DNA from: Spirochaetia bacterium
GTDB taxonomy: Bacteria > Spirochaetota > Spirochaetia > DSM-16054 > Sediminispirochaetaceae
DNA length: 64,000 nt
NCBI GenBank assembly: GCA_034520965.1
Contig: JAXHMY010000001.1
Location: forward strand, 800,001-864,000
Direction: 5' to 3'
A model generated the notes under the pieces. That model did not search any database, was not told the origin of the DNA, and saw nothing but the letters and a program-made list of their open reading frames with translations. Both the position numbers and the translations under genes were made by a program. Positions 43,897-62,942 of the stretch are shown piece by piece. Position 1 is the first letter of the stretch, and each line of letters opens with the position of its first letter.

Positions 43897-43980
43897 CAGA
43901 CGTCTGCGAGTACCCGGAGTTGGCGAATGCAGAATGTGCCGAAGGCCAAGGCCGAAGCTCGCCGCATATACGCCCTGTTA
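43897..43980 (-). repeat. attC-like site 2, degenerate and chimeric
   Basis: Left core CAGAC instead of TAAC; the two halves resemble different site subtypes. Confidence 0.7.
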
Positions 43981-43996
43981 TCGGAAGTTTGGACGA

Positions 43997-44290
43997 TCAC
44001 GAGACTTTCATCCTTTGGATTCCACTCAATTCATCTCCAATTTTTGACCGCTCTTCTTCAAGATCATAATCATCTTGAAGCCCCAACCAGAATTGTGCAG
44101 AATTGCCAAAAAACTCAGAAAGCCTCAAGGCTGTATCTGCTGTTATTCTGCGTCGGCCTTGTAGTATCTGTGAAATTCGTGTTTGTGGTATTTTTATTTC
44201 TTTTGCTAACCTGTATGCAGTAATACCAAATGGTTCAAGAAATTCTTCCTGTAATATTTCTCCCGGGTGTATATTTCGTAACCTATCCAT
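43997..44290 (-). CDS. higA: HigA antitoxin
   Basis: IHPGEILQEEFL, ITADTALRL..FFG.SAQFWLGLQ. Confidence 0.92.
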   Translation of the reverse strand: MDRLRNIHPGEILQEEFLEPFGITAYRLAKEIKIPQTRISQILQGRRRITADTALRLSEFFGNSAQFWLGLQDDYDLEEERSKIGDELSGIQRMKVS

Positions 44291-44302
44291 AATTATCTCC
44301 TA

Positions 44303-44584
44303 TTAATGGTAATCCACAATTTCTACGTTCAATGCATTTCCATTTTGCCATTGAAAACATATCCTCCATTGTGAATTGATTCTAATGCTGTAAAGCCCTT
44401 CTCTGTCTCCTTTTAAGGATTCCAATCTATTATTGGGAGGAATCCTTAAATCATTAAGATCTTGTGCATTGTTCAACATTCTCAGTTTTTTTCTGGCTGG
44501 ATTTTGAATATCTATTGGTAGCTTCAATGATGTATTTCCATTCCAGATCTTTTCTGTTTCTTTAGATCTGAATCCGATGATCAT
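44303..44584 (-). CDS. higB: HigB toxin
   Basis: DLRIPPNNRLESLKGDR.G.YSIRINSQWRICF. Confidence 0.92.
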   Translation of the reverse strand: MIIGFRSKETEKIWNGNTSLKLPIDIQNPARKKLRMLNNAQDLNDLRIPPNNRLESLKGDREGLYSIRINSQWRICFQWQNGNALNVEIVDYH

Positions 44585-44661
44585 ACTTAGAATACTAACG
44601 GCTTGTGATAGTATTGTCAAGTAATATTATCGTAATCATTGCTTCGTCCGAATTTCCGAAG

Positions 44662-44746
44662 TAACGTTTTGCCGTGTAGCCGAAAGTTGGCGACCAATGA
44701 GAGCCAATTTTGGCGGAGCATAGCGGAGGCCGGGTACTCGTTGTTA
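44662..44746 (-). repeat. attC-like site 3
   Basis: TAAC...GTTA; vapC stop codon in the core. Confidence 0.8.
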
Positions 44747-45157
44747 TGTGATGTTTGGCTCAACAATCCAGTTTTCAATTTTTATTTCCGGTACCCTTTC
44801 GAATTCCTTTACATTATTTGTAACTATGCAAAGGTCTCTTGAAATACATTGAGCTGCTATCTGTAGATCGTATGGACCTATTGGTGTTCCTTTTTTATTC
44901 AAATGAACCCTAAGAAATCCAAAATTTTCGCAATCCTTTTCTGAAAAAGGAATTATTTCAAAAGGAGTAAGAAACTCCAATAATGTATCTCTATTATTCT
45001 TTGGATAGAAGCTTTTGGCAATTCCATATTCCAGTTCTGCTACAGTAACTGCAGATATGGCAATATTAAAGGTGTCCTTTTCTAAAACTTTTTCAATTAA
45101 AGTAGGATACTTCTTTTTTATTAAGTAGATGCATATGTTGGTATCAAGAAGATACAT
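44744..45157 (-). CDS. vapC: VapC PIN toxin
   Basis: YLLDTNICI, IGPYDLQIAA, VTNNVKEFER. Confidence 0.92.
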   Translation of the reverse strand: MYLLDTNICIYLIKKKYPTLIEKVLEKDTFNIAISAVTVAELEYGIAKSFYPKNNRDTLLEFLTPFEIIPFSEKDCENFGFLRVHLNKKGTPIGPYDLQIAAQCISRDLCIVTNNVKEFERVPEIKIENWIVEPNIT

Positions 45158-45387
45158 TAGAAAAAATCCCTTTCCTGCTGTTCCGGTTGTTCTCTTCCAT
45201 TTTTAAAAACATCATCAGAAAACTTATCCAGACTTTCTTCAAATGTTCTCCACAAGTCGTCTTTTGATGTGAGAATAATTGATTTGCCAACTTTTTGAAT
45301 ATATAGTTCTTTCTCATCAATAAAAAATTCTTTGGGTATACGTATAGCTTGGCTGTTTCCGCTTTTAAATACTTTAACCGTTTGCAT
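45157..45387 (-). CDS. vapB: VapB (AbrB-fold) antitoxin
   Basis: KVFKSGNSQAIRIPKEF. Confidence 0.9.
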   Translation of the reverse strand: MQTVKVFKSGNSQAIRIPKEFFIDEKELYIQKVGKSIILTSKDDLWRTFEESLDKFSDDVFKNGREQPEQQERDFF

Positions 45388-45449
45388 ATTGTCCTCCTTC
45401 ATAGAGGTATATACTTGTGTGTATACATTGTCAAGAGCCAAATATCACG

Positions 45450-45537
45450 TAACGTTCCCGGGGTTTATGACATTTGCCCGCAGGGCAAATGTGCCAAAGG
45501 CCAAGGAGCGGTGCAACGCCGCATATACCCCGTGTTA
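45450..45537 (-). repeat. attC-like site 4 (subtype shared with site 19)
   Basis: TAAC-gttcc-CGGGGT...ACCCCG-t-GTTA, inner ATTTGCCC-GCA-GGGCAAAT. Confidence 0.85.
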
Positions 45538-45554
45538 TTCGCTGTTTTTATTCT

Positions 45555-45869
45555 TTAGTATGCTTTGTCTCTTTGTTCCATGGACGTTATAGAAACTATT
45601 TGTATTGAGTCATCAATGATATAAAAAACTCGATAATCTCCTACCCGATAGCGCCAAGTTTCAGGAGACCAATTTCGAAGTTTTTTAATGTTTTTTCCAT
45701 AATACGGATTAACACGTAATTGGGGATAAACATAATTATGAATTTTCTGATATCTAGAATCAGTTTCCTTAATCCTGAGTCTCTTTAAATCCTTAAGGAA
45801 CTGATCAGTTTCAAAGATTTTAAATAAATCAGGCAAATCGGCCTCTACCTTTTGAGGCATCAATCGCAC
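45555..45869 (-). CDS. RelE/ParE-family toxin; true start probably near 45837
   Basis: NIKKL....ETWRYRVGDYRVFY.ID. Confidence 0.85.
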   Translation of the reverse strand: MRLMPQKVEADLPDLFKIFETDQFLKDLKRLRIKETDSRYQKIHNYVYPQLRVNPYYGKNIKKLRNWSPETWRYRVGDYRVFYIIDDSIQIVSITSMEQRDKAY

Positions 45870-46068
45870 CTTGTTTTAAGCGATCAACCAATTCTGGGTT
45901 ACCTGAAATGCTTTCCATTTCGAATTCATCAACATAGTCAACTTCATCTATATATCGCTTGGTAGCAGTTTCGATGAAGTTTGAAATAGATCGATTTTCT
46001 GCTGCAGCATGAATCTTCAGAGATTGATATAATGTGTTATCTACCCTTAATGAAATAGTTTTAGACAT
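45829..46068 (-). CDS. Ribbon-helix-helix antitoxin
   Basis: KTISLRVD...AAAENRSISNFIE. Confidence 0.8.
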   Translation of the reverse strand: MSKTISLRVDNTLYQSLKIHAAAENRSISNFIETATKRYIDEVDYVDEFEMESISGNPELVDRLKQGAIDASKGRGRFA

Positions 46069-46150
46069 AGTTAACCTCCGTATACAATGTATTCTTATGT
46101 AATTAATTTAATTCAAAAAAGAAAAAAATGTCAAGAATAAAAATAACGCA

Positions 46151-46237
46151 TAACGTTTCGCGAGTACCCGAAGTTGGCGACCAACGGGAACCAATTTGGG
46201 CGAAGGCCGAATGGCCGGAGCCGGGTACTCGCTGTTA
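46151..46237 (-). repeat. attC-like site 5
   Basis: TAAC-gtttc-GCGAGTACCCG...CGGGTACTCGC-t-GTTA. Confidence 0.9.
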
Positions 46238-46265
46238 TCGGAAGGTTTTGGTGGTTCATTTCAAC

Positions 46266-46660
46266 TTACATAAGCGCTATCTTAATCTTCTTTCCTAAAG
46301 CCTTTGCTACTTTTTCTATTGTTGATAGTTTAATATCCTCCGAATGATTTTCCATCCTCGATATAACACTTTTTGTTGTATTAATTCTATTTGCTAACTC
46401 TTCACCGGATATTCCTTCATTTTTTATTCTTTTATCTACGTAATCATTGAGATTCATGTTTTTTCCTCCTAAAATAGTCTGTCTTATAAGTTTCAGCTTT
46501 TTTTATTTCATTTCGAGATGTCTTTTGTGTTTTCTTAATAATTCCAAGTGTTATTACAATCAGATTATTCTTAACCCAAAAACTGAACAACCTGTAAATG
46601 TTTGTATTAACCTTTATTCTTACTTCCCAAATTCCATCAGTTGATGCCAATTTCTTCTAT
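46266..46660 (-). pseudogene. Decayed copy of the Gp49/RelE-like toxin + XRE-HTH cassette
   Basis: Near-identical to 51655-52276; toxin 5' part missing, HTH has an 81-bp in-frame deletion. Confidence 0.85.
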
Positions 46661-46709
46661 TATTGATTTGTTCTTTTCTGTGTGTTCTGTGCATTTCGTG
46701 GTTCTTTCT

Positions 46710-47315
46710 TCACAGCTCATCGGTCTTAAATTCGCTGTAGCCTTCATAGAAATAGCTGACATCGATGCCTTTCATAAACAGGGAGTGGTCATCAATCTGA
46801 TCGGTCAATGCGCTTTTTAACAGTTCTTTGATTTCCACATCTTTGACCGGACTGCGCTCCATGGCAGACAGGTATTCCTCTTTATCGACCTGGTTCCAGT
46901 CGATGACCTTCCGAATCTCTTTTTTCAGGATGAGATCTAACCAGATGCGGGTAGCGCGGCCGTTACCTTCCCGAAAGGGATGGGCAATGTTCATCTCGAC
47001 ATATTTTTCGATTATCTCATCAAAGTTGCTCTGCGGCATGGTCTCGATGTGTTTGAGCGAGTGTTCCAGATACATAATCGGCGCAAAACGGAAATTGCCT
47101 TTGGTGATATTCACGTCACGGATACTGCCGGCAAAATCATAAATCTCACCAAACAGATAGGTATGAATGAAGGCCAGTCCTTTAAAGGTGCCGACATTTA
47201 CTTGTTGAATGTCGCCCGACTCAAACAGTTGCTTGGCTTTTTGTTTGCTGATCTTTTCTTCGGCTTTGGCCAGCTCAATTTGATCGGTGATGCCCAGTTT
47301 GTTTTCCAGAATCAT
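46710..47315 (-). CDS. fic: Fic-domain AMPylase (class III, NmFic-like)
   Basis: [13 protein letters not shown]-terminal SYFYEG inhibitory motif. Confidence 0.9.
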
Positions 47316-47331
47316 ATCTTACCTTTTTTTT

Positions 47332-47409
47332 TAACTACGGAATACACAGAATACACTAAAAGCTTTTTAATAAAACTCTTCTTCCGTGTTTTCAATGTGT
47401 TCTGTGGTT
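47332..47409. repeat. Second-family AAC...GTT palindromic element with 9-bp periodic arms; half copy at 46677-46703
   Basis: AACTACGGAATACACAGAATACAC...GTGTTTTCAATGTGTTCTGTGGTT. Confidence 0.7.
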
Positions 47410-47411
47410 TA

Positions 47412-47663
47412 CTATTCTTCTTTCTCATGCGTCACCGCCTTTTTTACGGCTCTCTTTTTTGGCCTGTTTTCCAGTGCGGCGATGGTTTCAAGGTAGTCTT
47501 TTTCCACGTTTACCAGCGTTTTTCCTTTGGGAGTCTGAAAGAGCTTGACAATCTGACCCTGGGTCAGGTAGATGGGTTCGTTCTGCAGGATAGTGTCTAC
47601 TTTTATATCACCTTCAGGAGTTGTGTAGACGATTATTTGGTATTGTTTAGACTCTTTCTTCAT
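47412..47663 (-). pseudogene. Internally deleted RhuM-like gene
   Basis: N-terminus aligns with 38270-39292 (IIVYTTPEGDIKVDTILQNEPIYLTQ vs IILYKTTDGNIKIDTVFQNETIWLTQ). Confidence 0.7.
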
Positions 47664-47701
47664 GCTATTTTTCTCCCATCATCTTGGTGCGGTATTGCCT
47701 A

Positions 47702-47783
47702 TAACGTTCCGCGTGTAGCCAAAGTTGGCGCCCAACGGGAGCCTATTTTGGCGGAGCATAGCGGAACCAGCTATTTGCTGTTA
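47702..47783 (-). repeat. attC-like site 6
   Basis: TAAC...GTTA with the shared AAGTTGGC...CAACGGGAGCC interior. Confidence 0.8.
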
Positions 47784-47804
47784 TCGGTAGTATTTTCAAT
47801 TCTG

Positions 47805-48023
47805 TTACGCTTCTTTAATAATATCCTCAAATGAATGGAATTTTACTTTTCCTTTACTTTCAAGGGTTTCATATTTTTTTATCTCTTCCCTGTCAATAAT
47901 ATCTTCATACATATCATTCAACGATGTTTTTATTACAGTTGATTTATCTTTTTCTAAATAGTCAGTCAGAAAGAAAAGCATCTTTTCCTCTTCTTCGGTT
48001 AGTCTTATTGATACAACACTCAT
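47805..48023 (-). CDS. RHH (DUF6290-like) antitoxin
   Basis: SVVSIRLTEEE...KSTVIK; overlaps toxin stop. Confidence 0.7.
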   Translation of the reverse strand: MSVVSIRLTEEEEKMLFFLTDYLEKDKSTVIKTSLNDMYEDIIDREEIKKYETLESKGKVKFHSFEDIIKEA

Positions 48024-48298
48024 TTATACACATCCTCCCTCTTGGAGATTTTTACTACGATAATATCATCTTCCTGGAAATAAAATATTGCTCGATATTT
48101 TCCTTTCCTTAATCTAAAATACTCACGTAATTCTGATCCTTGCAATCTTTTAATATCAAATAGGGTCAAATCTTTTGTGAGTTCTAGTGATTGAAAAGCA
48201 TGGTGCATATGCTCAAATATGTGCTTTGGAATCAATCCTCTTTTATATGCTTTTAAAACAGCATTTTCATATTTGATCATGTAAACATTGTAATACAA
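48020..48298 (-). CDS. RelE-like toxin
   Basis: DIKRLQG....YFRLRKGKYRAIF...REDVYK. Confidence 0.8.
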   Translation of the reverse strand: MYYNVYMIKYENAVLKAYKRGLIPKHIFEHMHHAFQSLELTKDLTLFDIKRLQGSELREYFRLRKGKYRAIFYFQEDDIIVVKISKREDVYK

Positions 48299-48337
48299 AG
48301 TGTGAGTTTTATCAAGAAATCTTGAAAATATTTCCGA

Positions 48338-48424
48338 TAACGTTCCGCGGCTATGCGAAGTTGGCGACCAACGGGAGCCAATTTGGGCGGAGGCTGAAGG
48401 GCCGTAGCCGGGTACTCGCTGTTA
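48338..48424 (-). repeat. attC-like site 7
   Basis: TAAC...GTTA; left arm GCGGCTATGCG mismatches right arm. Confidence 0.8.
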
Positions 48425-48441
48425 TGTGATGTATCGTGATA

Positions 48442-48735
48442 CTATGAAGCTTTAACATGTGGGATCTTCTCTAATTCCTGTGCTATATGCTTCTTTTCTT
48501 CGCGTAAATCATACTCATCTTGTATCCCGAGCCAAAAATCCGCTGAATTACCAAAGTACTTGGAAAAGCGTAGGGCCGTATCAGCGGTGATCCTGCGATT
48601 GCCTTTAATAATTTGTGATATCCTCGTTGCCGGGACATTCGTATCCTTTGCCAGCCTGTAAGCTGTTATATTCATTGGTTTAAGAAACTCTTCCAATAAA
48701 ATTTCTCCCGGTGTAATTGTTGGTATCTTTTCCAT
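48442..48735 (-). CDS. higA: HigA antitoxin, second paralogue
   Basis: TPGEILLEEFL, ITADTALRF..YFG. Confidence 0.92.
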   Translation of the reverse strand: MEKIPTITPGEILLEEFLKPMNITAYRLAKDTNVPATRISQIIKGNRRITADTALRFSKYFGNSADFWLGIQDEYDLREEKKHIAQELEKIPHVKAS

Positions 48736-48749
48736 GCTTTTACCCTCAG

Positions 48750-49031
48750 TTAATGATAATCTGTAATCTCAACTTCACTTGCAGCTCCATTATTCCAGTT
48801 GAAGCAGATCCTCCATTGATTATTTATTCTAATACTATATTGTCCTTTCCTATTCCCTGCTAATTGCTCCAATCTATTGCCAGGAGGGACCCTCAAATCG
48901 TTTAAATCTTTTGCTCTGTGCAATACAATCAGCTTCCTTAATGCAACTTTTTGCATTTCTTTGGGAAATCTCTTTGAATAGATTTCTTCCCATATTTTTT
49001 CGGTAGCCTTATCTTTGAATGATTCGATCAC
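48750..49031 (-). CDS. higB: HigB toxin, second paralogue
   Basis: DLRVPPGNRLE.L.G.RKGQYSIRIN.QWRICF. Confidence 0.92.
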   Translation of the reverse strand: MIESFKDKATEKIWEEIYSKRFPKEMQKVALRKLIVLHRAKDLNDLRVPPGNRLEQLAGNRKGQYSIRINNQWRICFNWNNGAASEVEITDYH

Positions 49032-49099
49032 AACTTATATTAACCTATAACGTTAATAATGTAAAACGTTAATATTTCTTTCTATCTCGATATATAACA

Positions 49100-49186
49100 T
49101 AACGTCCCGCGAGTACCCGAAGTTGGCGAACAACGGGAGCCAATTTGAGCGGAGGCCGAAGGGCCGTAGCCGGGTACTCGCTGTTA
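49100..49186 (-). repeat. attC-like site 8
   Basis: TAAC-gtccc-GCGAGTACCCG...CGGGTACTCGC-t-GTTA. Confidence 0.9.
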
Positions 49187-49249
49187 AGCGACGGGCCAAG
49201 CTCATCTATATATGTATCTACATTGCCGCACTCTTCATTAAAGACATTA

Positions 49250-50023
49250 TTATTCCTTGATTGCTCTGGTTGCAATAAAAGAGTTAATATACGAATCTAA
49301 CAGATCTCCACCAGAAGAGTCTTCATAGAATCCTTTAATGGTAAATCCAACATCAATCTGACCGCCGATTTGATCCTGTAATGAATGTCCGAATTCTAGT
49401 GTTTCCTTATTCGCAATCCTTAATTCCAGTTGTTCTTTCGGAAGGTGTTCTAAATCAGAATACGGAATCCTATGTCTTACTGTAAGATTTTGATTAACAT
49501 CCCATTCATGCATATCAAAAATATATGTTATTGGGTTTCCAAAGCCTGCTAATAATGGTCCGCCTTTCTTTAGAACTCTATAACACTCTTTCCATACTTT
49601 ATTTACGTCGTCTATGAAGCAATTTGATACTGGATGAAATATCAAATCAAAACTATCATCAGCAAACCTCGATAAATCACGCATATCTCCTTGTTCAATT
49701 GCAATTGACAATCTTTCTCTTGCCGCAACCATCTTGTCTCTTTCGAGTTGATACGGGCTATTGTCAAGCACTGTTACTTCTGCCCCTGTGGCTGCTGCTA
49801 AAACTGGTCCTTGTTGTCCACCACCTGATGCTAAACATAGTATTTTCTTTCCATCAAGTTTTGGAAACCAATCTGAAGGTACAGGTTTGGTTGGTGTAAG
49901 TACGACACTCCATTTCCCCTTTCTGGCTTCCTCTATTTGTTGTGAATTTACAGGTTTGGTCCAAATATTCCCATCTTCGACCTGCTTATTCCACGCCTCA
50001 CGATTGTGATCCAGTATTTCCAT
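49250..50023 (-). CDS. Class I SAM-dependent methyltransferase cassette
   Basis: ILCLASGGGQQ, GDMRDL..F.D.SFDLI. Confidence 0.88.
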   Translation of the reverse strand: MEILDHNREAWNKQVEDGNIWTKPVNSQQIEEARKGKWSVVLTPTKPVPSDWFPKLDGKKILCLASGGGQQGPVLAAATGAEVTVLDNSPYQLERDKMVAARERLSIAIEQGDMRDLSRFADDSFDLIFHPVSNCFIDDVNKVWKECYRVLKKGGPLLAGFGNPITYIFDMHEWDVNQNLTVRHRIPYSDLEHLPKEQLELRIANKETLEFGHSLQDQIGGQIDVGFTIKGFYEDSSGGDLLDSYINSFIATRAIKE

Positions 50024-50116
50024 AGATAATATCTCCTCGTTAATTTAAACTAAATGAAAAGAACTGTTCTATAAATTTCGATGTGAAGCCGGACTTATCA
50101 AGTATGGGCTATCGCC

Positions 50117-50200
50117 TAACGTTACAGAAATATACGAAGTCCGGCTACGCCGCATTTGCCGAAGGCCAAGCCCGTAGGGCGCAGCGCATATTTCTTGTTA
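50117..50200 (-). repeat. attC-like site 9
   Basis: TAAC-gttac-AGAAATAT...ATATTTCT-t-GTTA. Confidence 0.8.
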
Positions 50201-50209
50201 TAAGACGTA

Positions 50210-50497
50210 TTACCTTTTTTGAGTGGTTAATGGGTCAGCTACAGTTTCAGAGTTCTCATAGATATTTTCCGGATCAATATCAATACAGTCATATGGATCA
50301 TAATTTCCAGAAAGATCCCAAGCAAGAGTATTATTCAAAACAGTACATTTGTTTTGAAAATCATCGATATTAGATATTCTAGAGAATACGCCTTTTCCTA
50401 GAAGCGGAGATACATCATATTTTTTTATAATCCCGTCGGAAAAGTAAACAAAAACAGTGAAATCTTTTTGAGGAAGTACTTGTACTACATCATGCAT
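50210..50497 (-). CDS. DUF2442 protein (putative antitoxin)
   Basis: VVQV.P..DFTV.VYFSDG....DV, TLAW, DIDPE.IY. Confidence 0.8.
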   Translation of the reverse strand: MHDVVQVLPQKDFTVFVYFSDGIIKKYDVSPLLGKGVFSRISNIDDFQNKCTVLNNTLAWDLSGNYDPYDCIDIDPENIYENSETVADPLTTQKR

Positions 50498-50507
50498 ATT
50501 GATCTCC

Positions 50508-50768
50508 TTACGTTAAGGGCTCCATCCGATGGATTTCTCCATGTTGTTTTGCGGAATTTCAATTTTGTAAAAGCTCATTTTCATGTAATTCACACCATGC
50601 TAAAACTAGTTTTAATTGTCTAGATGGCAAAGAACCCTTGATAACAACTGCATCATTTATTGACACAAGAGCTTTTTCATTGCCCTATTGAGCATGGAAA
50701 TGAGGAGGTGTATGATCATCCCAATACATATAAATTTTTATTCCGAAAAACTCGCATACTAATGGCAT
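50508..50768 (-). pseudogene. DUF4160 protein (putative toxin) with two in-frame stops
   Basis: MPLVCEFFGIKIYMYWDDHTPPHFHAQ*G...LLQN*NS; TAG 50685-50687, TGA 50559-50561. Confidence 0.85.
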
Positions 50769-50825
50769 GTAGACTCCTGTTGTCCATATTATACTAGAAA
50801 ATTTCAAAAAAGGTAATATGTCGTA

Positions 50826-50837
50826 TAACTCCCATTA
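50826..50837 (-). repeat. Collapsed attC-like site 10
   Basis: TAAC-TCCC-ATTA; both flanks match their partner cassette ends. Confidence 0.65.
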
Positions 50838-50866
50838 AATGTAGTGCCAGGCATTCTTCTCAGCTC

Positions 50867-50896
50867 TCCCTAAAGTACACGGATGTACTTTAGGGA
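50867..50896. terminator. Perfect 13-bp hairpin downstream of the SRPBCC gene
   Basis: TCCCTAAAGTACA-CGGA-TGTACTTTAGGGA. Confidence 0.55.
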
Positions 50897-50957
50897 ATTC
50901 CTTTTCAGCATTTTAAAACTATTAAACGAATATTTTCTGCCAAGTGTAATCCGGGCG

Positions 50958-51404
50958 CTAGACATGTTTTGCTACCTCGTTTTCTACATAGTGCTTAAAT
51001 TCTTTGTTCATATTCTGATATCCAACTGCAGTTTTTGTTATCATTTTTTGCATTAAAAGAATGATAGGGCCTTTAAATTTCTCTATCTGCCGAAATCTTG
51101 TAACCTTATCATCAATATATTCTAGTAAAAACTCATGCATTCCGTTATAGACGAATACCAAGAAGCTACCTCCCCATGATATTCTTTTATTTTGCTCTAT
51201 CTCGTAAATTTTAGGTTTAAAAAACATTTCCTTCATGCCGGGAGACACAACTTTTATAATCATTTTATTTCCAACTTTAAATTCACCTTGAACCATTGGT
51301 ATAAATGAATTCCAGTTCTCCCATGATTTAAAATCGATAAGCATATCCCACACTTCTGATATGGAGGCATTAATATTTATCCAAGAATTTAATTCCCTAT
51401 ACAA
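50958..51404 (-). CDS. SRPBCC (polyketide cyclase-like) protein cassette
   Basis: ININASISEVWDML.DF..W..WN.FI, HEF.LE...TRF.Q.E.F.G. Confidence 0.8.
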   Translation of the reverse strand: MYRELNSWININASISEVWDMLIDFKSWENWNSFIPMVQGEFKVGNKMIIKVVSPGMKEMFFKPKIYEIEQNKRISWGGSFLVFVYNGMHEFLLEYIDDKVTRFRQIEKFKGPIILLMQKMITKTAVGYQNMNKEFKHYVENEVAKHV

Positions 51405-51539
51405 TTTGTCTTTCTTTAATAAAACCTTGCCTTCTCTATCTACACTTAAATCTATTGTATTAATTATTGGTCATCCCCTTTATCTTTCCTCGTCGAACCA
51501 TGGAGGGTTCAACACTGCAATTCCGTCTAGCATTACATT

Positions 51540-55313: not shown

Positions 55314-55356
55314 AGTACACCTTCTTTTATAAATCTATAACAGAATAAATATCGTA

Positions 55357-55444
55357 TAACGTTCCGCGAGTACCCGAAGTTGGCGACCAAGGGGAGTCAA
55401 TTTGGGCGGAGGCGCTTGTCGCTGTAGCCGGGTACTCGCTGTTA
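55357..55444 (-). repeat. attC-like site 14
   Basis: TAAC...GTTA main subtype. Confidence 0.9.
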
Positions 55445-55460
55445 TGGGAAGTTTCTGCTT

Positions 55461-55883
55461 TCACCGGAATGAGTGCTTTGATATGTATTCTAATGCTGCA
55501 TGTGTCAAGAATCCTGATCTGGTTTCTCCTTCTAAGTTTGCAAAATTGTCTATCTTTGAAAGTAGTTTCTCTGTAATTGTGATATTGATACGCTTTACAT
55601 TCTCAGAAAGTTTATTCATATCAATTTCGCAGAGCATCCATATATAATTCGGATTATTAAAGGTCGTTTTCAATTCTTCTACACGGGAAGGTGGTGGTAC
55701 AATTTCCTCATCCATCAGTAATCCTTCAATATGTGTAAGTATTGCCTCTTCTGCATTTAAAATTGCTTCATCAACTGTTGCACCTGCGGAAAAACAACCC
55801 TGGAGATCTGGGACAGTGACACCATAGTCTGAAGTTTGCTCTTTTTCTATAAAAATTGGGTATCTCATATGTACTCCCTCCAA
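55461..55883 (-). CDS. hicB: HicB antitoxin (RHH C-terminus); probable start MRYP
   Basis: YGVTVPDLQGCFSAG.TVDEA, RINITI, TRSGFL. Confidence 0.9.
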   Translation of the reverse strand: MEGVHMRYPIFIEKEQTSDYGVTVPDLQGCFSAGATVDEAILNAEEAILTHIEGLLMDEEIVPPPSRVEELKTTFNNPNYIWMLCEIDMNKLSENVKRINITITEKLLSKIDNFANLEGETRSGFLTHAALEYISKHSFR

Positions 55884-56062
55884 TCAATACCAGCTTGTCT
55901 AAAAATACTCTTTGTAGTACCAATTGGTAGGTCTGATTTTGGATGCGGAACAGTAACTTTTCCGGTTTTGGTATTGTGCTTAAACTGATAATGAGAACCA
56001 CGAATATTATGTACAAACCATCCATCCTTCTTTAGGATTTTGATTATTTCTGAGCTTCTCAT
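55865..56062 (-). CDS. hicA: HicA toxin
   Basis: LKKDGW....RGSH.QFKH....VTVPHPK.DLP.GT..SI..QAG. Confidence 0.92.
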   Translation of the reverse strand: MRSSEIIKILKKDGWFVHNIRGSHYQFKHNTKTGKVTVPHPKSDLPIGTTKSIFRQAGIDWREYI

Positions 56063-56107
56063 GTCTAATAATACACACGATGTGTATAAATGTCAATTGA
56101 TTTAGCA

Positions 56108-57804
56108 AAGCAATTCGAAATGTGAGAAAGCATCGAGAGGGAAGTAACTCTAATATCTCTAACTAGACATTTTATCCTTACTATAGTATAGTGTCCGTAT
56201 GGGAGGGGCCGGATACAGCTTTGCTGTACTGTTACAATTTTTAGAGGACTCAATTACGACATTCCCGGATGTACGCAAAGGGAAGAACACCGTATATGAA
56301 GTACGCGATGCGGTACTATCGGCCTTTTCGATGTTCTTCATGCAATGCCCCTCCTTCCTTGCTCATCAGAGAGCGATGGGCATGAGGAAAGGGAAGAACA
56401 ATGCCGAAAGCATATTCGGTGTTCACAAGATTCCAACTGACACCCATATTCGAAATCTGCTCGATCCAATACCGCCGGAGCTACTATTCCCGGTCTTTGA
56501 CAAGGTCTATGAGTTTCTCCTCACTGAAGGGGTTATCAAGGAGATGATTACCCACGATAATTTACTGTTGATTGCCCTTGATGGGACCTGGTTTTTTTCC
56601 TCCGAGCAGCTCTTCTGTCCCTCCTGCCAAACCAAAACACATAAAAGTGGAAGCGTAACCCATTACCACAGTGCCATTACCCCGGTCATTGTCAGACCAG
56701 GGGTAAACTATGTGGTCGGTCTTCCCTCGGAATATATTACCGTCAATGATGGTGCTACGAAACAGGACTGTGAAAACAAGGCGGTGAAACGGTGGATAGA
56801 GACAATTGGGAGAAAGTACCTGTCGGAACAGCACACTGTTGTACTGTTAGGCGATGATCTGTACAGCAGGCAGCCGGTATGTGAGCACACCATGGCCTCC
56901 GGCTGCAGCTTTATCTATGTATGTAAAACAGCATCACACAAGTATTTATACGAGTGGATCGATGAGTTCACCGCCGAGGATCTGCACGAAAGTTACAAAC
57001 GCATATGGGATGGCAAGAGGCGGCTGACCTATCGCTACCGGTACCGCAACGATGTCCCTCTCAAAGACGGTGATGAGTCGCTGAAGGTAAACTGGATGGA
57101 ACTAACCATCCTGAGCGAAGAGGGGCAGCTGATTAAGCACTTCTCCTTTGTTACCGACATTCCCGTAACTGATACAAATATCGAGGATATGATCTCTTAC
57201 GGTTGAAGCCGGTGGAAGATAGAAAACGGAAACAACAACATTCTCAAGACAAAGGGCTACCATCTGGAACATAACTTTGGCCATGGGGATAAGCATTTAT
57301 CGAACTTCCTGATGACCTTGAACCTTCTTTCCTTCCTCTTTCATACCACTGCCGGGTTGTTCGACAGACGATATATACTACTTCGCAAAACCCTGCCGAG
57401 CCGTCAGACATTCTTTCATGATGCTCAGGCGTTAACCAAATATTTCTTCTATGAAAGTTGGGAGCATCTTCTCAAAACGATGATCATTGGCCTGGAACTC
57501 GAAGACCCGGGCGGATGACCGGTCAACCAAATCCACGCTCTTTTTTGATGTAGAAAGCTCTCCTCACCATCATTCACTCTCAATCTCTCCTCTTTCTACC
57601 TAAAGCTGAGCTCACTGAATTATTTCCCTGAATATGAACTGAACAGAGTTTTAAAGATGATGGAATGTGAGCTTTTCACCATTCACACACTGTGTGAGCT
57701 CTTCAATTTTGGTGCAGGGATTAGCCTCTCCCAACCGCTGTAAAGAAATAAGCCTAGCTGTATCACAGCCTTTACCCGAAATTATGTCACTTTTCGCATT
57801 GCTG
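56108..57804 (+). mobile_element. Insertion sequence (ISNCY-like DDE) with 9-bp target duplication
   Basis: GATTTAGCA at 56099-56107 and 57805-57813; imperfect IRs AAGCAATTCGAAATGTGAGA / revcomp CAGCAATGCGAAAAGTGACA. Confidence 0.85.
56199..57518 (+). pseudogene. ISNCY-like transposase with in-frame TGA at 57204-57206
   Basis: IALDGT, LGDDLYS; frame continues SRWKIENG...GYHLEHNFGHG after the stop. Confidence 0.85.
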
Positions 57805-57824
57805 GATTTAGCAGAAATTTCCGA

Positions 57825-57912
57825 TAACGTCCCGCGAGTACCCGAAGTTGGCGACAGACGGGAGCCAATTTGGGCGAAGGCGCTTGTCGCCGCAGCCGGG
57901 TACTTGCTGTTA
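57825..57912 (-). repeat. attC-like site 15
   Basis: TAAC...GTTA main subtype. Confidence 0.9.
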
Positions 57913-57935
57913 TGTGAAGAAGCCTTTTCCTCTAA

Positions 57936-58349
57936 TCATTTTAGAACTATTTCTAATTCTTTATTGAATATTTTGGCTATTTTCTCCAGAGTTTTAACAG
58001 TAGGATTGCATCTTCTTGGATTTTCCAGTCTTTGATATGATTGATAAGAGATACCAAGTTCTTTAGCTAATTCTATTTGACTTTTTTTATCTCTTATTTT
58101 TCTTAGTCGAAGTGCTACTTCAATATGTGGTTTGATATAGATCCGGTGATAGTTTTTGCCTTTATATTCTTGTGGATCCTTTATTTCAAAACCTCTTTCA
58201 AAATCAGATTCGATGCTTCCATTCAATGCTTCTTCAGCATTTTTAATTGCTTCTTCCACGGTTCTTCCATAAGTGTTTATATGTTGAAACTGTGGAAAAG
58301 AAACAATAAAATCATCGTCTTCTTTATCAATCAATGCATAGTAATACAT
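57936..58349 (-). CDS. hicB: HicB antitoxin with XRE-HTH
   Basis: FIVSFP....NTYG.TVEEA..NAEEAL; SQIELAKELG.SYQ.YQRLE. Confidence 0.88.
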   Translation of the reverse strand: MYYYALIDKEDDDFIVSFPQFQHINTYGRTVEEAIKNAEEALNGSIESDFERGFEIKDPQEYKGKNYHRIYIKPHIEVALRLRKIRDKKSQIELAKELGISYQSYQRLENPRRCNPTVKTLEKIAKIFNKELEIVLK

Positions 58350-58406
58350 ATTAGCTCCTATAAAAAGTCAATCACAAGCTTTCCAGAAAGCTCATAATTT
58401 AGCCGG

Positions 58407-59524
58407 CTATCCGGCCTTTGCGGCATCACATGCTGCCGCCTGCATTTTCAAATACTTTTGAGAGTGCTCCATCCTTAGTGGATCGAAGGACTCTCTGTTT
58501 TTTAGCATCATGTAGATAACCGGTACTCAATTTCCGTGCTGTAGCTATTATGCTCTTCCCGCTACCTTTGTGTTTCTTCATATACTCATAGCGGGTCATA
58601 ACTCTGTACCCGCCGGTTTGTTCTTTTATTTCTGACCATTCCCAATACGCATTGCACCATTGCCGTTCTTATTTCCCTTCGGTCCCCGTTTGGTTATATG
58701 CCCGTGATGGGATCATCTCGTTCTGAGTTCTGTACCCACGGTGCCAGGCCCATATGAGCAGCGAACTTCTTCGGGCTCTCATAACGGTCAATATCATCAA
58801 TAAAAGCCCTCAGTGTAGCAGCAGTTATCAACCCAACTCCGGGAATCGTCTGCAACAACTCTACATCTTTGTCCTCAGCAACCATGCTCTCAAGCACCTT
58901 CTCCAGCTTCTTGACCTGTGCACTAAACTGGTCTAAAGTATCGAAGAGCGGCTTGACCGCTTCGGCAGCGCTTCCGTAAACCTTATGGTCCACGAGACCG
59001 GAAAGGATGCGCTGCCTCTCTTTTTTACTCTGCAGCTGTCCTCTCTTCGTCTCGATCCCATAGCCGAGCAGCATACCGTGAATCTGGTTCTTTATTCCAA
59101 CCAACGCTTTCACCGCTATCGACCTCGTTTTCAATACTCTTCGGATATCCTCACTCGTTTGACTGCACAGCCTCGATTCAGGAAGCATATCCTTCTCCAA
59201 AAACTCCGCAAGTGTTCGTGCATCGTGCTTGTCCGTCTTCTTGACCGACTCGTTGACCACCTTGAACTTCAAGGTGTTTACCACCGTCACTTCAATTCCG
59301 GCACTCAGCAGCCGGTTGCGGAAATAACGGGCGTTACCGGTTGACTCAACCGCCGCATGCACCTCATACCCTGCCTCTACGTACTCGCTACATTTACTGA
59401 GGAACTCTTCATATCCGATTTCTTTTGTCGGATAGATTCCCGTTTCCACTGCTTTCCGGTTTTCCGCCAGAAAACAGACAGTGAATTGGCTCTTGTGCAG
59501 ATCCACTCCAATACTCATCTTCAT
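58407..59524 (-). CDS. IS110 DEDD recombinase with several C-terminal frameshifts
   Basis: IGVDLHK, VESTG, KTDKHDA, TIPGVG, GLAPWVQNS; later frames give GHITKRGP...IIATARKL. Confidence 0.9.
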
Positions 59525-59559
59525 CGCTTCTCTCCTGTTCTGTTCAAAACAGCTCCGGT

Positions 59560-59700
59560 TTGGTGAATTGATTCCATTCTCCTATTCGGTCTCGTAGACC
59601 ATTGAATGCTTCGGTTACGGCTCTTCATTCTCCTCTGACGGTTGTAGACCAATAAAAATGCCGAACAGTAACCTGCTGTCTCAAACTAAGTTTGCGACAG
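59560..59700 (-). ncRNA. Candidate IS110 bridge RNA
   Basis: 5' hairpin (59676-59700) plus two related stem/internal-loop units holding target-like CTCCTCT and donor-like CTCCTAT; boundaries approximate. Confidence 0.6.
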
Positions 59701-59704
59701 TATA

Positions 59705-59926
59705 TCAATCCACAAAGCTTATGAAGACCTTTTTATCATTCCTCCTCTCTATTCCGGCTTGTTTGAGAATTCTCTTTGCTAATCCGATTGGAATCTCTTT
59801 CTTCCCGTGAACTGGTATAGGTATAGATCTTCTCCCTTCCTTGATCATTATATGATGGCTACCAGATATTCTATCTAATACCCAGCCATGGTCTTTTAAT
59901 AATTTTATTAAATCTTTTCCTGTCAT
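59705..59926 (-). CDS. hicA: HicA toxin with C-terminus altered by the IS110 insertion
   Basis: LKDHGW...RISGSHH......IPIPVHG.KEIP.GL...ILKQAG. Confidence 0.9.
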   Translation of the reverse strand: MTGKDLIKLLKDHGWVLDRISGSHHIMIKEGRRSIPIPVHGKKEIPIGLAKRILKQAGIERRNDKKVFISFVD

Positions 59927-60047
59927 TTTAGATAATTATACAACCTTTATGTTGTATAGTCAATTTTATTAATTTTCTTTTCGAAGGTTTTTTGCGGTAG
60001 TAACCAATTTCCTAATCAAAACTCATATTCTTTAAGGCTTTTTCACA

Positions 60048-60123
60048 TAACGGGGCGGCGGGTATCCGCAGTGGCCAGGTAAAGCCGGAGGCTTGTACGG
60101 GCCATTGAGGATACCCGCCAGTT
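60048..60123 (-). repeat. attC-like site 16, distinct GC-rich subtype
   Basis: TAAC-ggggc-GGCGGGTATCC...GGATACCCGCC-a-GTT. Confidence 0.8.
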
Positions 60124-60204: not shown

Positions 60205-60286
60205 CAACGTTCCGCGAATAGACGAAGTTGGCGACCAACGGGAGCCAATTTGGGCAGAGCGAAGCGTAGCCGGGTACTCGCTGTTA
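60205..60286 (-). repeat. attC-like site 17
   Basis: CAAC...GTTA with main-subtype interior. Confidence 0.8.
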
Positions 60287-60362
60287 TATGACGTTTCGGG
60301 GGCGTTCTTAGACATACTATTTTACTTTGTCTCTGGGAAAAATTGATTTTTATTTCCACAGT

Positions 60363-60479
60363 TTAGACATACCCCCCTATGAACACATAACAGATTACCA
60401 CACCACCTGGATCAATTAGCATCTTTTTATTCTTAGATTTAATTAAAAATGTATTGTATCCAAAAAATGTTATTTCCAT
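60363..60479 (-). pseudogene. 38-aa N-terminal remnant of an MBL-fold hydrolase
   Basis: MEITFFGYNTFLIKSKNKKMLIDPG resembles the MBL-fold start. Confidence 0.5.
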
Positions 60480-60516
60480 TCTTCACTCTTGCCATATATT
60501 TGGGGGCAATTGCACA

Positions 60517-60645
60517 TAACGTCCCGCAAGTACCCGAAGTTGTCCGACCACTTGCTCCGCAAGTGGCTTGCCATAAAATCTGAGATTTTATGGTCGGGCA
60601 ATTTGGGCGGAGGCGCTTGTCGCCGGAGCCGGGTACTCGCTGTTA
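60517..60645 (-). repeat. attC-like site 18, long variant
   Basis: Near-identical to 52350-52479. Confidence 0.88.
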
Positions 60646-60897
60646 TGCGATGAATTGTGAAGCGTCAACAGAACTTTCTTTATAAAGAATTTCGGGATCT
60701 AAATCTGCTCCGTTTGGCCATTCAATTGTATCGAATTTTACTGATACTGCATTAAATATTGAAACATCCCGTAATTCCGAAAAGATACCGAAATCAAGAT
60801 AGGGGGAAACATCAAAATACCGTTTCTCATCATTCTTAAAGATAAGTAACAATTTGTAATCTGAAAGAGGTTTTACATCTTTAACACCCAAATACAT
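60643..60897 (-). CDS. DUF2442 protein (putative antitoxin)
   Basis: VKDVKPL.DYKL.L.F.N.E.R.FD, TIEWPNGADLDPE.LY. Confidence 0.85.
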   Translation of the reverse strand: MYLGVKDVKPLSDYKLLLIFKNDEKRYFDVSPYLDFGIFSELRDVSIFNAVSVKFDTIEWPNGADLDPEILYKESSVDASQFIA

Positions 60898-60907
60898 AAA
60901 ATCCTCC

Positions 60908-61174
60908 TTATTGTAATGGATCAATTTTGTAGGGTGATTCACCATTTTGGGCTAATTGCCAATCAGCAAGTAGTTCATCTTTATGTAATTCTGCCCAAGC
61001 TTCTATAAGCTTTATTTGTCGTTTCGGTAGATTGCCTTCAGTCATTTCGCAAATGTTAATATCAAAGATTCCTTTGAAATCCTGATAATATGCATGGAAG
61101 TGAGGAGGGTTATGCTCCTTCTTTCCCAGCTACATTCTAATGACAATTCCAAAAAACATTGAAATAGTAGGCAT
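60908..61174 (-). pseudogene. DUF4160 protein (putative toxin) with in-frame TAG
   Basis: MPTISMFFGIVIRM*LGKKEHNPPHFHAYY...AWAELHKDELLADW; TAG at 61130-61132. Confidence 0.85.
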
Positions 61175-61232
61175 AGCCTATATTATATCATCTCCTTCCA
61201 TTATAGTCTATTTTGCTTCACAATTTGTCGCA

Positions 61233-61320
61233 TAACGTCCCCGGGGTATAAGACGTTTGCCCGCAGGGCAAATGTGCTAAAGGCCAAAGAGCGGAGCGAC
61301 GCCGCATATACCCCATGTTA
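61233..61320 (-). repeat. attC-like site 19
   Basis: Same subtype as site 4. Confidence 0.85.
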
Positions 61321-61372
61321 GACGATGTCACGAACCTTCTTCAAAGCCAAGCAACATGGATGTTGTTTGGCT

Positions 61373-61702
61373 TTATTCTATTAACATTTCTTGCAGCACA
61401 CTTTTGACGAGTTCAATTTCTTTTTTATTTATTTTCCCAATTTTCTTAATCAATCTTTTCCTATCAACCGTCCTCAATTGATCTAAGACTATCCATCCAT
61501 TTTTTTTTTCAAATTGAAGAGGAACACGTGTTGGATATTTATATGATTTCGTTGTCATCGGGGCTATTATGATTGTCTGGATTGATTCATTCATCTCATT
61601 TGGAGAGATTACCAAGCAGGGGCTTGTCTTTTTTATTTCATGGCCAACAGTTGGATCTAAGTTAATTAAATACACTTCATATTGTTGTATTACCATTCCC
61701 AT
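61373..61702 (-). CDS. mazF: MazF/PemK toxin
   Basis: NLDPTVGHEIKKT.PCLVISP, DQLRTVD..RL. Confidence 0.9.
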   Translation of the reverse strand: MGMVIQQYEVYLINLDPTVGHEIKKTSPCLVISPNEMNESIQTIIIAPMTTKSYKYPTRVPLQFEKKNGWIVLDQLRTVDRKRLIKKIGKINKKEIELVKSVLQEMLIE

Positions 61703-61950
61703 TCAAAATCGTCCTGCTCATTTAGATTGTCCAGAAATAATGAATCATCACCATTCTTGTGCATCTTCATAAACTCTTCGGGCCATCCTTCTCTTGGCTT
61801 TTTCTTTATTGGTCGAATCAGAATTTCCGTATTATGCACTTCCAACTCTACTTTCTCTTCAATGTTTAATTGTTGTAAAATACTCTTTGGAATCCTAATT
61901 CCTTTTGAATTGCCTATAGGAACCACTGAAACTAACATATTACACCTCAA
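61690..61950 (-). CDS. mazE: MazE/AbrB antitoxin
   Basis: IGNSKGIRIPK. Confidence 0.88.
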   Translation of the reverse strand: MRCNMLVSVVPIGNSKGIRIPKSILQQLNIEEKVELEVHNTEILIRPIKKKPREGWPEEFMKMHKNGDDSLFLDNLNEQDDFEWEW

Positions 61951-62044
61951 CTAATGTAATTATATAGTAGTTACGTAATTTCGTCAATCTTTTGCTTGCT
62001 AAGGATTGCAAGCTTCTTCTTTCTCTTAGGTTCGTGATTTCGTC

Positions 62045-62132
62045 TAACGTCCCGCGAGTAGCCGAAGTTGACGACCAACGGGAGCCAATTTGGGCGAAGG
62101 CGCTTGTCGCCGGAGCCGGGTACTCGCTGTTA
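62045..62132 (-). repeat. attC-like site 20
   Basis: TAAC...GTTA main subtype. Confidence 0.88.
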
Positions 62133-62160
62133 TCTGGAGGTTTTGGTGGTTCATTTCAAC

Positions 62161-62433
62161 TTACATAAGCGCTATCTTAATCTTCTTTCCTAAAGCCTTT
62201 GCTACTTTTTCTATTGTTGATAGTTTAATATCTTCCGAATGATTTTCCATCCTCGATATGACACTTTTTGTTGTATTAATCCTATTTGCTAACTCTTCTT
62301 GTGTTAACCCACTTCTTTCTCTTGCTTCTTTTAAGAAAATCCCGATTTTGTAATCCTCATAACCTTCCCAAAACTCTTCACCGGATATTCCTTCATTTCT
62401 TATTCTTTTATCTACGTAATCATTGAGGTCCAT
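62161..62433 (-). CDS. XRE-HTH antitoxin (copy)
   Basis: Near-identical to 51655-51927. Confidence 0.88.
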   Translation of the reverse strand: MDLNDYVDKRIRNEGISGEEFWEGYEDYKIGIFLKEARERSGLTQEELANRINTTKSVISRMENHSEDIKLSTIEKVAKALGKKIKIALM

Positions 62434-62782
62434 GTTTTTTCCTCCTAAAATAGTCTGTCTTATAAGTTTCAGCTTTTTTAATTTCATTTCGAGATGCCTT
62501 TTGTGTTTTCTTAATAATTCCATGTGTTATTACAATCAGATTATTCTTATCCCAAAAACTGAACAACCTGTAAATGTTTGTTCCAACCTTTATTCTTACT
62601 TCCCAAATTCCATCAGTTGATGCCAACTTCTTGAAATAGGTTTTTGGTACAAAATCCATTTCTTCTATTATCTTTAATGTCCATGCAATCTTCTTCACTA
62701 CACCCATCTCAAGGCTATCAAGAAATTCCTCAACAGGACATTTTCCTTTATCAGTTGTGTAGAAGATCACTTCTCTATGCAT
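62420..62782 (-). CDS. Gp49/DUF891 RelE-like toxin (copy)
   Basis: Near-identical to 51914-52276. Confidence 0.88.
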   Translation of the reverse strand: MHREVIFYTTDKGKCPVEEFLDSLEMGVVKKIAWTLKIIEEMDFVPKTYFKKLASTDGIWEVRIKVGTNIYRLFSFWDKNNLIVITHGIIKKTQKASRNEIKKAETYKTDYFRRKKHGPQ

Positions 62783-62855
62783 AAGAGAATGTTAGCATGC
62801 GTGCTAACAATATTCAAGACATTATTTTAAGCTATTTCCTACCAAAACTTTCAGA

Positions 62856-62942
62856 TAACGGGCGCGGCTATATGAAGTTTTTGCGTAACGCAGTAAAGCA
62901 AAAATTTGGGTGTTGCGAAGCGTAACCATATAGCTGCTGTTA
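62856..62942 (-). repeat. attC-like site 21
   Basis: TAAC-gggc-GCGGCTATATG...CATATAGCTGC-t-GTTA. Confidence 0.8.

Follow-up and report, generated by a model that had tools for sequence, protein, structure and literature searches.

We analyzed a 64,000-nucleotide stretch of the genome of a Spirochaetia bacterium (C1:800001-864000, contig JAXHMY010000001.1; hereafter the window), together with the genome sequence beyond base 64000, and found in it an integron-like array of gene cassettes in which 16 of 21 units have two ends that pair with each other, with a G.T wobble fixed at the eleventh base. On the basis of sequence comparisons, we regard this pairing of the cassette ends (arms) as real and as general to arrays of this class, and what we offer on its mechanism as a proposal. 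Coordinates are those of the window unless a contig is named.

A profile search of the genome placed 20 hairpin sites in a row from 43233 (C1:843233-864295) and recovered 2 further matches elsewhere; two lone, decayed site copies lie away from the array at C9:45712-45790 and C7:162514-162615. As in integrons, the cassettes stand in tandem, all facing one way, and hairpin sites with an AAC/GTT core lie between them. The cargo between the sites consists of small minus-strand genes, mostly toxin-antitoxin pairs according to Pfam; all identified cargo genes lie on that strand, one inserted open reading frame (ORF) excepted. Just past the window, the array ends at a junction that lacks a hairpin and lies 40 bases from the stop codon of the gene for a 357-amino-acid (aa) tyrosine recombinase that points toward the array. 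The first cassette ends there at AA/C, giving an attI-like simple site beside the recombinase, again as in integrons, and similar junctions were seen by eye below many of the recombinase homologues. Positions were numbered from the G of GTT. The 21 consecutive units have left ends from 43316 to 62939, including a hairpin-less unit at 50834, with one additional unit wholly past base 64000; a unit was counted as paired when its left end matched the reverse of its right end at at least 10 of the 16 positions from 5 to 20.

Pairing of cassette ends in this array and its relatives

The stems of the 16 paired units are 16 to 26 bases long, with a median of 21, and one unit scored 38 through a loose tail. 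Left ends match their own partners at a mean of 11.0 of 16 positions, versus 5.8 of 16 for foreign partners (420 pairings); the neighboring ends that meet at one array site match at a mean of 5.3 of 16, and none of 100,000 permutations reached the own-partner mean. Position by position, 13 to 16 of the 16 units are paired at positions 5 to 19, except at position 10 (12/16) and position 11, and pairing drops toward background beyond position 21. A genome-wide search that made no use of site calls retrieved 14 arm pairs in the array, all with G.T at position 11, and 4 pairs elsewhere in the genome, none of which combines a left G with a right T. An initial annotation, made by reading the sequence, had proposed cassette ends complementary over 15 to 26 bp; the six end sequences that it quoted lie where it put them (its right-hand numbers being end coordinates), the comparison with shuffled partners that it suggested bears it out, and its claim holds for 16 of the 21 units and fails for 5. 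Three of the latter (46234, 52476, and 60283) are truncated or fused copies of whole cassettes: each opens with the left arm of a cassette found intact at another place in the array, whose right arm it matches at 13 to 15 of 16 positions.

Paired arms are kept around inserted elements in two cassettes (55441 and 57909). No partners for orphan arms turned up elsewhere in the genome beyond the copies inside the array, in a search that missed one arm with a decayed core, found by eye at the far end of the array. This left arm, at 35768 beyond hsdR, pairs with a right arm ending at 43236 at positions 7 to 10 and 12 to 21, with G.T at 11, and its 14-base pattern occurs in the genome only at 35768 and in two right arms. 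These matching arms enclose the type I restriction operon, which is probably a single 7.5-kb cassette. Its right arm recurs at 47702 ahead of a short unclassified ORF and a Fic gene.

The initial annotation had also counted about 24 mismatches that are G.T on the plus (bottom) strand against about 4 A.C and read them as a strand bias. Our recount within the stems gives 23 G.T to 9 A.C (p = 0.02), with 15 other mismatches, and position 11 alone supplies 16 of the 23, all 16 paired units having a left G and a right T there. Once position 11 is removed, 7 G.T stand against 9 A.C (p = 0.8), leaving no diffuse bias in this array. G is found at left position 11 in 21/21 units and T at right position 11 in 20/21, whichever partner they face. 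Because the wobble is present whatever cassettes adjoin, it is a feature of the site rather than a by-product of private pairing, and the supposed diffuse bias reduces, in this array, to that one feature. A G-C pair occupies position 8 in 15 of the 16 paired units. A residual bias outside position 11 is seen only in relatives: their cellular arrays have 25 G.T to 2 A.C, where foreign pairings predict 56% G.T and 10 of the 25 sit at position 10, and phage arrays have 20 to 5. Kin are not independent, and we give this excess moderate weight. Canonical attC hairpins likewise have G.T pairs favoring the bottom strand, at 1.24 versus 0.39 per site (PMC5027507).

For these comparisons, we set arrays beside homologous recombinase genes against arrays beside true IntI genes. 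Site calls relied on the stretch enclosed by AAC and GTT with one further base at either end, and a unit was scored as paired with at least 5 of 7 Watson-Crick pairs at positions 13 to 19. Most loci with fewer than 3 site calls were left out, as were units of less than 120 or more than 1600 bases, repeated end pairs, loci that had few calls or an uncertain orientation (L048, L076, L092, L247, L260, L263, L272, L291, L302, L331, and L347), and duplicate phage loci (L019, L020, and L055). Missed sites dilute both classes; for the present array, this pipeline gave 6/11, versus the 21 hand-checked units. Detectors for the canonical and the new site type largely split the arrays according to their type of recombinase. 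Of 94 units in related cellular arrays, 74 are paired (13/15 in other spirochaetes, 55/68 in family f17, and 6/11 in metagenomes and locus L017), which upholds the suggestion that the arms are a signature of this system. The corresponding count for IntI arrays is 7 of 410 (1/107 in family f2, which we take to be Treponema-like; 2/72 in the family of Vibrio atypicus; 4/147 in the family of Xanthomonas sp.; and 0/84 in others), and at least half of the units are paired in 16 of 18 related loci versus none of 59 IntI loci.

Position 11 is G.T in 84/94 cellular and 82/118 phage units and is a Watson-Crick pair in 0/94 of the former. A search without site calls in 39 loci (named genomes, metagenome contigs, and short spirochaete loci) gave 27 arm pairs, 25 with a G.T/A.C mismatch at position 11. 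At L148 and L302 the sites face the other way, and the wobble flips with the site; the recombinases of these two loci lack the front domain described below. Many viral contigs (L018-L094) carry the same site type near a related recombinase gene, and in only 9 of their 118 units does the expected strand carry an ORF of 80 codons. G.T-type pairs are frequent in the Treponema-like IntI arrays (L117-L126 and L134), at 43 to 46% for positions 11 and 13, with left T facing right G at position 11 in 46/107 units; this polarity is opposite to the present one, and the positions lie outside the paired stretch.

Canonical pairing fades after position 8, after 9 to 12, and after about 12 in the different IntI groups, with background reached after 8 to 13 across 410 + 14 units. 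The 14 belong to a canonical integron on contig C3 of this same genome, which thus holds both cassette systems; there, pairing extends to 11 to 13, position 11 is Watson-Crick in 10/14 units, and none of the 14 is paired at 13 to 19. The initial annotation had named routine stems of equal length in canonical cassettes as an observation that would speak against it, and such stems proved rare there. The 7-bp R box from which it reckoned was too short a baseline, since canonical own-cassette pairing reaches 9 to 11 nucleotides (nt) (PMC2727003); that the present stems extend far past this limit nevertheless stands. In the relatives, the stop codon falls at position 18 or beyond in 72/82 units and within 18 to 30 in 36/82, and in the array itself it lies outside the arm in 13/16 paired units, the arms overlapping a gene end in the other 3; IntI cassettes have it at position 17 or less in 259/348. 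Stop codons thus avoid the arm, which appears to be a dedicated noncoding module, about 10 bases longer than the canonical one.

Site architecture and the recombinase

On the plus strand, the site consists of AAC, a 10-nt spacer side with a 4-nt bulge, an inner stem, a 6-nt spacer side, and GTT. When folded, it presents an outer arm, a 6-nt spacer opposite 10 nt (the bulge being on the cut strand), and an inner arm. All arms, outer and inner, have A at position 3 and T at position 4, and C is found at position 8 in 20/22 outer and 19/20 inner arms; T at position 11 marks 21/22 outer arms and 0/20 inner arms. Fixed positions extend to 11, and one 6-bp spacer is common to the attI-like junction and the hairpin-less site at 50826 and fits the folded sites as well. 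A canonical attC detector made 1 and 2 calls on the two strands, versus 16 for the bulge architecture. Detector, site table, and folds all fail to show an attC with an extrahelical L-box base and unpaired spacers of 5 to 6 nt on both sides; the inner stem has no extrahelical G, and the 4-nt bulge lies beside the core instead. Two almost identical sites, at 52350 and 60517, have one and the same left arm after them but different right arms before them, which points to a cut at the AAC end on the plus strand. Taken with the attI-like junction, these duplicated cassettes suggest a cut at AA/C on that strand, as in integrons. The idea that the site is the Flavo-1 motif gained no support from an Rfam comparison and a literature search; no window match reached the Rfam gathering score, and 5 chance-level matches at E values up to 10 lay in 43000-64000.

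In folds modeled for 15 paired units, the circle junction is better than the array form in 15/15 and better on the plus than on the minus strand in 15/15. The mean modeled energies are -32.7 kcal/mol for the circle junction on the plus strand, -27.6 on the minus strand, and -21.0 for the array form, and the corresponding core pairing probabilities are 0.96, 0.74, and 0.36. These models agree with the earlier suggestion that the ends extend the att hairpin in an excised circle, with one strand favored. Among public runs containing this sequence, none of RNA was listed. A search for such circles in contigs of 4 public runs gave no unambiguous case, with several joints falling inside repeated sites; one contig from run X1, which may be the source sample, joins an insertion-free HicAB right arm to that cassette's own site in a circle-like way.

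The recombinase lacks the IntI-specific insertion (I2): its catalytic motifs are 65 residues apart versus 106 in IntI, and its alignment to structure 2a3v breaks at the place of the insertion. It scores 155 bits against the integron integrase model TIGR02249 (cut-off, 265), 148 of 335 bits against XerC, and 156 of 330 bits against XerD, the last two far below their cut-offs. The best NCBIfam match is NF040815 at 173 bits (209 to 219 in three intact homologues; cut-off, 220), and the best sequence match among solved structures is the archaeal Xer recombinase 4a8e. Among the invariant alignment columns are R211, K236, H301, R304, H327, and Y336, which we take to be the catalytic residues. Residues 1 to 60 form a small front domain (model confidence, 80 to 87) of two strands, a helix, two strands, and a helix, with a weak match to HARP (PF07443; 17.8 bits against a 25-bit threshold; E = 0.0024) that recurs at E values up to 0.05 in 7 of 18 homologues. 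HARP binds DNA forks. A fold search with the whole recombinase listed only recombinases, leaving the N-terminal fold unconfirmed, and its Atlas hits were below 0.9 and unnamed. Homologues at E ≤1e-30 occur in 101 of 301 genomes of the phylum, not all of which need be of this type. The frameshifted true intI gene on C3 was rejected as the driver of the array, as it has its own canonical array at C3:39-79 kb.

A proposed mechanism and its alternatives

We think it probable that each pair of arms forms the outer half of a folded, Xer-like site on the bottom strand, completed only in the excised circle, and that the wobble marks the cut strand. The array would then be an integron-like system driven by a Xer-like recombinase without I2, with its cassettes cut and joined at AA/C on the plus strand. 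In an excised single-stranded circle, the right arm, hairpin, and left arm would fold into one rod mimicking a simple double-stranded site. In it, about 11 bases of the outer arm (fixed at 1 to 4, 8, and 11) would be read, the cut strand would carry the 4-nt bulge of the 6-nt spacer, and the hairpin would supply the inner arm. A Xer-like footprint would cover about 11 bases, and the private pairs at 12 to 20 would clamp the open end of the rod beyond it. The cut strand would need T11, and G is the sole partner that pairs with T11 on the bottom strand yet leaves C facing A on the top strand, so that only one strand, and hence one gene orientation, would insert at the attI-like site beside the recombinase. 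After insertion, the arms would face foreign partners and the site would fold poorly, and cassettes would be kept rather than excised. We infer the single-stranded substrate, the role of the wobble, and the insertion bias from sequence patterns. By analogy, the nearest precedent for such a mechanism comes from phage CTX: XerC recombines a folded single strand of this phage, dif has 11-bp arms and a 6-bp center, and integration is one-way because the fold is lost afterwards (PMC4246890).

Several observations weigh against this proposal. Five of the 21 units (left ends at 43316, 43977, 46234, 52476, and 60283) are unpaired, the array has no diffuse strand bias outside position 11, and the 25:2 count in cellular relatives comes mainly from one family (f17, 18 to 5 by another count). 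Phage arrays have shorter stems, ending near position 15 (25/118 units paired at 13 to 19), and a Watson-Crick pair at position 11 in about 9% of units. Nine pairs of homologous cassettes do favor it, with 10 two-sided changes that keep pairing, 4 one-sided changes, and 1 two-sided break, but the set is small and nonindependent: a single event, counted twice, accounts for 4 of the 10, and 6 come from one pair (37% protein identity). The fold energies are equilibrium models, and for the arm duplex by itself the plus strand is favored over the minus strand by just 1 kcal/mol (12/16), which places most of the strand difference in the hairpin. The circle-like joint is a single contig with a depth of 3.3 and 50 letters on its short side, and another cassette order fits it too. 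How a cassette with mismatched arms leaves the array is not explained by the proposal. Finally, the recombinase is 12 residues shorter than 17/17 aligned homologues at the start of the catalytic domain, where a contig of X4, from another study, has 36 more bases at an 8-base repeat; this allele may therefore be inactive, and the array may be frozen or decaying.

The arms might instead serve excision, in place of or besides insertion, if they paired across the gene in single-stranded array DNA and brought neighboring sites together as a hybrid site. Whole-cassette folds with both flanking sites speak for such a long-range clamp, with own arms paired at a probability of 0.67 to 0.98 and local cores at ≤0.11 in 6/6 cases, as does the front domain with its weak HARP match. 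Yet the same modeled competition between own arms and local cores may block excision or, less likely, stage it, and equilibrium folds of 770 to 940 nt disregard single-strand-binding protein and kinetics. A hybrid inner stem from neighboring sites reaches at least 8/10 in only 4/12 pairs, versus 9/12 for a site's own stem, and the arms also frame a 7.5-kb unit; we judge this role unlikely.

That G11 and T11 are fixed whatever their partner would also follow if they were sequence-specific contacts of two half-sites in duplex DNA, with Xer-like action on a duplex or cruciform and no structural role for the wobble. The absence of the insertion that handles extrahelical bases in IntI (PMC4792948) and the hairpin-less simple site of one cassette (50826) fit such contacts. 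They leave unexplained, however, the complementarity at the variable positions 5 to 7, 9, and 12 to 19, the 25:2 G.T excess in relatives, and the conserved inner hairpin with its one-sided bulge, and we consider this reading improbable.

A further reading sees the arms as an unselected relic of cassette making or maintenance, with fold-back synthesis or template switching having made one end a copy of the other. Their private, nearly perfect sequences that stop abruptly at about 20 and the clustering of stop codons just past them, as if a module had been appended to the gene, are in its favor, and cassette genesis is without a reliable model (PMC4792948). Plain copying predicts A opposite T at position 11, which occurs in none of the 94 cellular units; tolerated mismatches are skewed to G.T, and homologues with changed arms remain complementary. 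Copying and selection may both act, and a pure relic is in our estimation quite improbable. Pairing in messenger RNA, leader with trailer, to regulate the cassette genes is highly improbable, for although the arms flank genes on both sides and overlap a gene end in 3/16 units, the transcript is the minus strand, on which the fixed pair becomes C facing A and tolerated wobbles become mismatches, and the complementarity begins exactly at the recombination triplet.

Composition of the array and relation to known systems

The sites, units, and neighboring features are collected below. The hairpin-less site at 50826 is possibly the product of recombination with attI or a primitive cassette.

Features of the array and its surroundings (window coordinates unless a contig is named; fractions are matches at positions 5 to 20)
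Feature	Position	Strand	Basis or remarks
Probable 7.5-kb cassette, type I restriction-modification operon (hsdM, DUF1016/YhcG, hsdS, RhuM, hsdR)	35768..43236	-	far end of array; arms, Pfam
att hairpin site	43233..43319	+	profile search, folds
Further att site starts	43861, 44662, 45450, 46151, 47702, 48338, 49100, 50117, 51540, 52350	+	profile search
Further att site starts, continued	54403, 55357, 57825, 60048 (composite, to 60286), 60517, 61233, 62045, 62856, C1:864214	+	profile search
Composite 239-base site	60048-60286		long G+C-rich hairpin fused to standard site with differing first base (near 60206)
Unit with unpaired ends	43316..43864	-	3/16
HigA/HigB toxin-antitoxin unit	43977..44665	-	ends not paired base for base (1/16); Pfam
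PIN toxin + MazE-like antitoxin cassette	44743..45453	-	arms 19 bases, G.T at 11; PIN gene extends into left arm
ParE-like toxin + RHH antitoxin cassette	45534..46154	-	arms 22 bases, G.T at 11
Chimeric unit: Gp49/HTH left arm + 3' part, Fic gene, restriction-operon-type right arm	46234..47705	-	unpaired (4/16)
DUF6290 + unclassified gene	47780..48341	-	arms 20 bases, G.T at 11
HigA/HigB cassette	48421..49103	-	arms about 21 bases (38 by loose score), G.T at 11
Methyltransferase cassette	49183..50120	-	weakest paired arms: 16 bases, 10/16; G.T at 11
DUF2442 cassette	50197..50829	-	arms 26 bases, G.T at 11
Polyketide cyclase/SRPBCC-like cassette, site without hairpin	50826..51543	-	arms 19 bases, G.T at 11
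Hairpin-less simple site, mid-array	50826-50840		two arms around the attI-like site's 6-bp spacer; arms complementary to cassette's other end
Gp49/HTH pair	51623..52353	-	arms 21 bases, G.T at 11
Chimeric unit: left arm + gene of DUF2442 cassette (complete at 60642), Rce1-like protease, unclassified gene	52476..54406	-	unpaired (7/16)
Alpha/beta hydrolase cassette	54487..55360	-	arms 24 bases, G.T at 11
HicA/HicB cassette with 1.7-kb insertion at far edge of right arm	55441..57828	-	arms 19 bases, G.T at 11
Insertion in HicA/HicB cassette	56108-57813		9-bp direct repeat, imperfect inverted ends; 335-aa ORF, no Pfam match
HicB-HTH/HicA cassette interrupted by IS110 element	57909..60051	-	arms 18 bases, G.T at 11
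IS110-family element	58355-59745		public-run contigs differ by many one-base gaps
Truncated copy of first cassette (C1:864292)	60283..60520	-	unpaired (6/16)
DUF2442 cassette	60642..61236	-	arms 22 bases, G.T at 11
MazE/MazF cassette	61317..62048	-	arms 21 bases, G.T at 11
Gp49/HTH pair, second copy of 51623 cassette	62129..62859	-	arms 21 bases, G.T at 11
Beta-lactamase-fold hydrolase cassette	62939..64000, on to C1:864217	-	arms 20 bases, G.T at 11
First cassette, weak DUF3795	C1:864292-864809		beyond window; arms 21 bases, G.T at 11
attI-like simple site	C1:864806-864815		beyond window
Tyrosine recombinase, 357 aa	C1:864849-865922	-	just beyond window; without IntI insertion; small N-terminal domain
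Second, canonical integron	C3:39329-80998		about 22 attC with extrahelical G, several repeated cassettes, frameshifted intI

The arms can be used as a barcode that marks true cassette limits and reveals chimeras, inserted elements, and the restriction operon as probable cargo. A literature search of titles and abstracts, covering few subscription journals, found no description of these arms or of this recombinase class. Integron recombination is attributed to the reading of extrahelical bases by the I2 domain, and the origin of that pairing of domain and bases is called a chicken-and-egg problem (PMC4792948); PMC3607928 describes Treponema as the only spirochaetes with integrons. Here, an enzyme without I2 heads an array with a different, sharply conserved site code of long private arms and one wobble. 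We raise, as a tentative possibility about which we are doubtful, that this is a separate class of cassette system, a working intermediate between Xer and integrons, with an I2-less enzyme bearing a fork-binding front domain, a site completed by each cassette's own ends, G.T in place of extrahelical bases as the strand mark, and arms that new genes acquire when one end is copied from the other. If true, it would give a handle on cassette birth and a way to find arrays, including multigene defense cassettes, that IntI-based annotation misses.

Among known systems, the archaeal XerA model (NF040815, "site-specific tyrosine recombinase/integron integrase") and structure 4a8e are the nearest to the enzyme by sequence. 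The family members here differ from XerA in scoring below the cut-off in 4/4 cases, in having 70 to 100 extra N-terminal residues, and in being tied to cassette arrays. XerC/XerD-dif and the attP(+) site of phage CTX share an I2-less recombinase with the array and, on our proposal, would also share its action on a folded single strand mimicking a simple site with 11-bp arms and a 6-bp center; attP(+) is also present only in the free form and integrates one way (PMC4246890, PMC4792948). Unlike these, the present system has one dedicated recombinase beside the array, many private arms, and an inner hairpin that persists in the array.

With integrons, among them the sedentary chromosomal ones of Vibrio, Xanthomonas, and Treponema, the array shares the recombinase gene and adjacent attI-like site, tandem cassettes in one orientation, the AAC/GTT core with a proposed bottom-strand AA/C cut, own-cassette pairing across the core, G.T pairs favoring the bottom strand inside attC, and a toxin-antitoxin-rich cargo; as in the Treponema integron (PMC3607928), the recombinase points toward the array. 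It differs from them in having neither an I2 insertion nor an extrahelical G, in the 4-nt bulge beside the core and the 6-nt spacer, in own-end pairing to about 21 rather than 8 to 13, in the fixed wobble at position 11, in stop codons outside the arm, and in the extra N-terminal domain of its recombinase. The array is integron-like in its working, yet with the I2 insertion and the extrahelical attC both wanting, two defining features of integrons, we do not class it as an integron.

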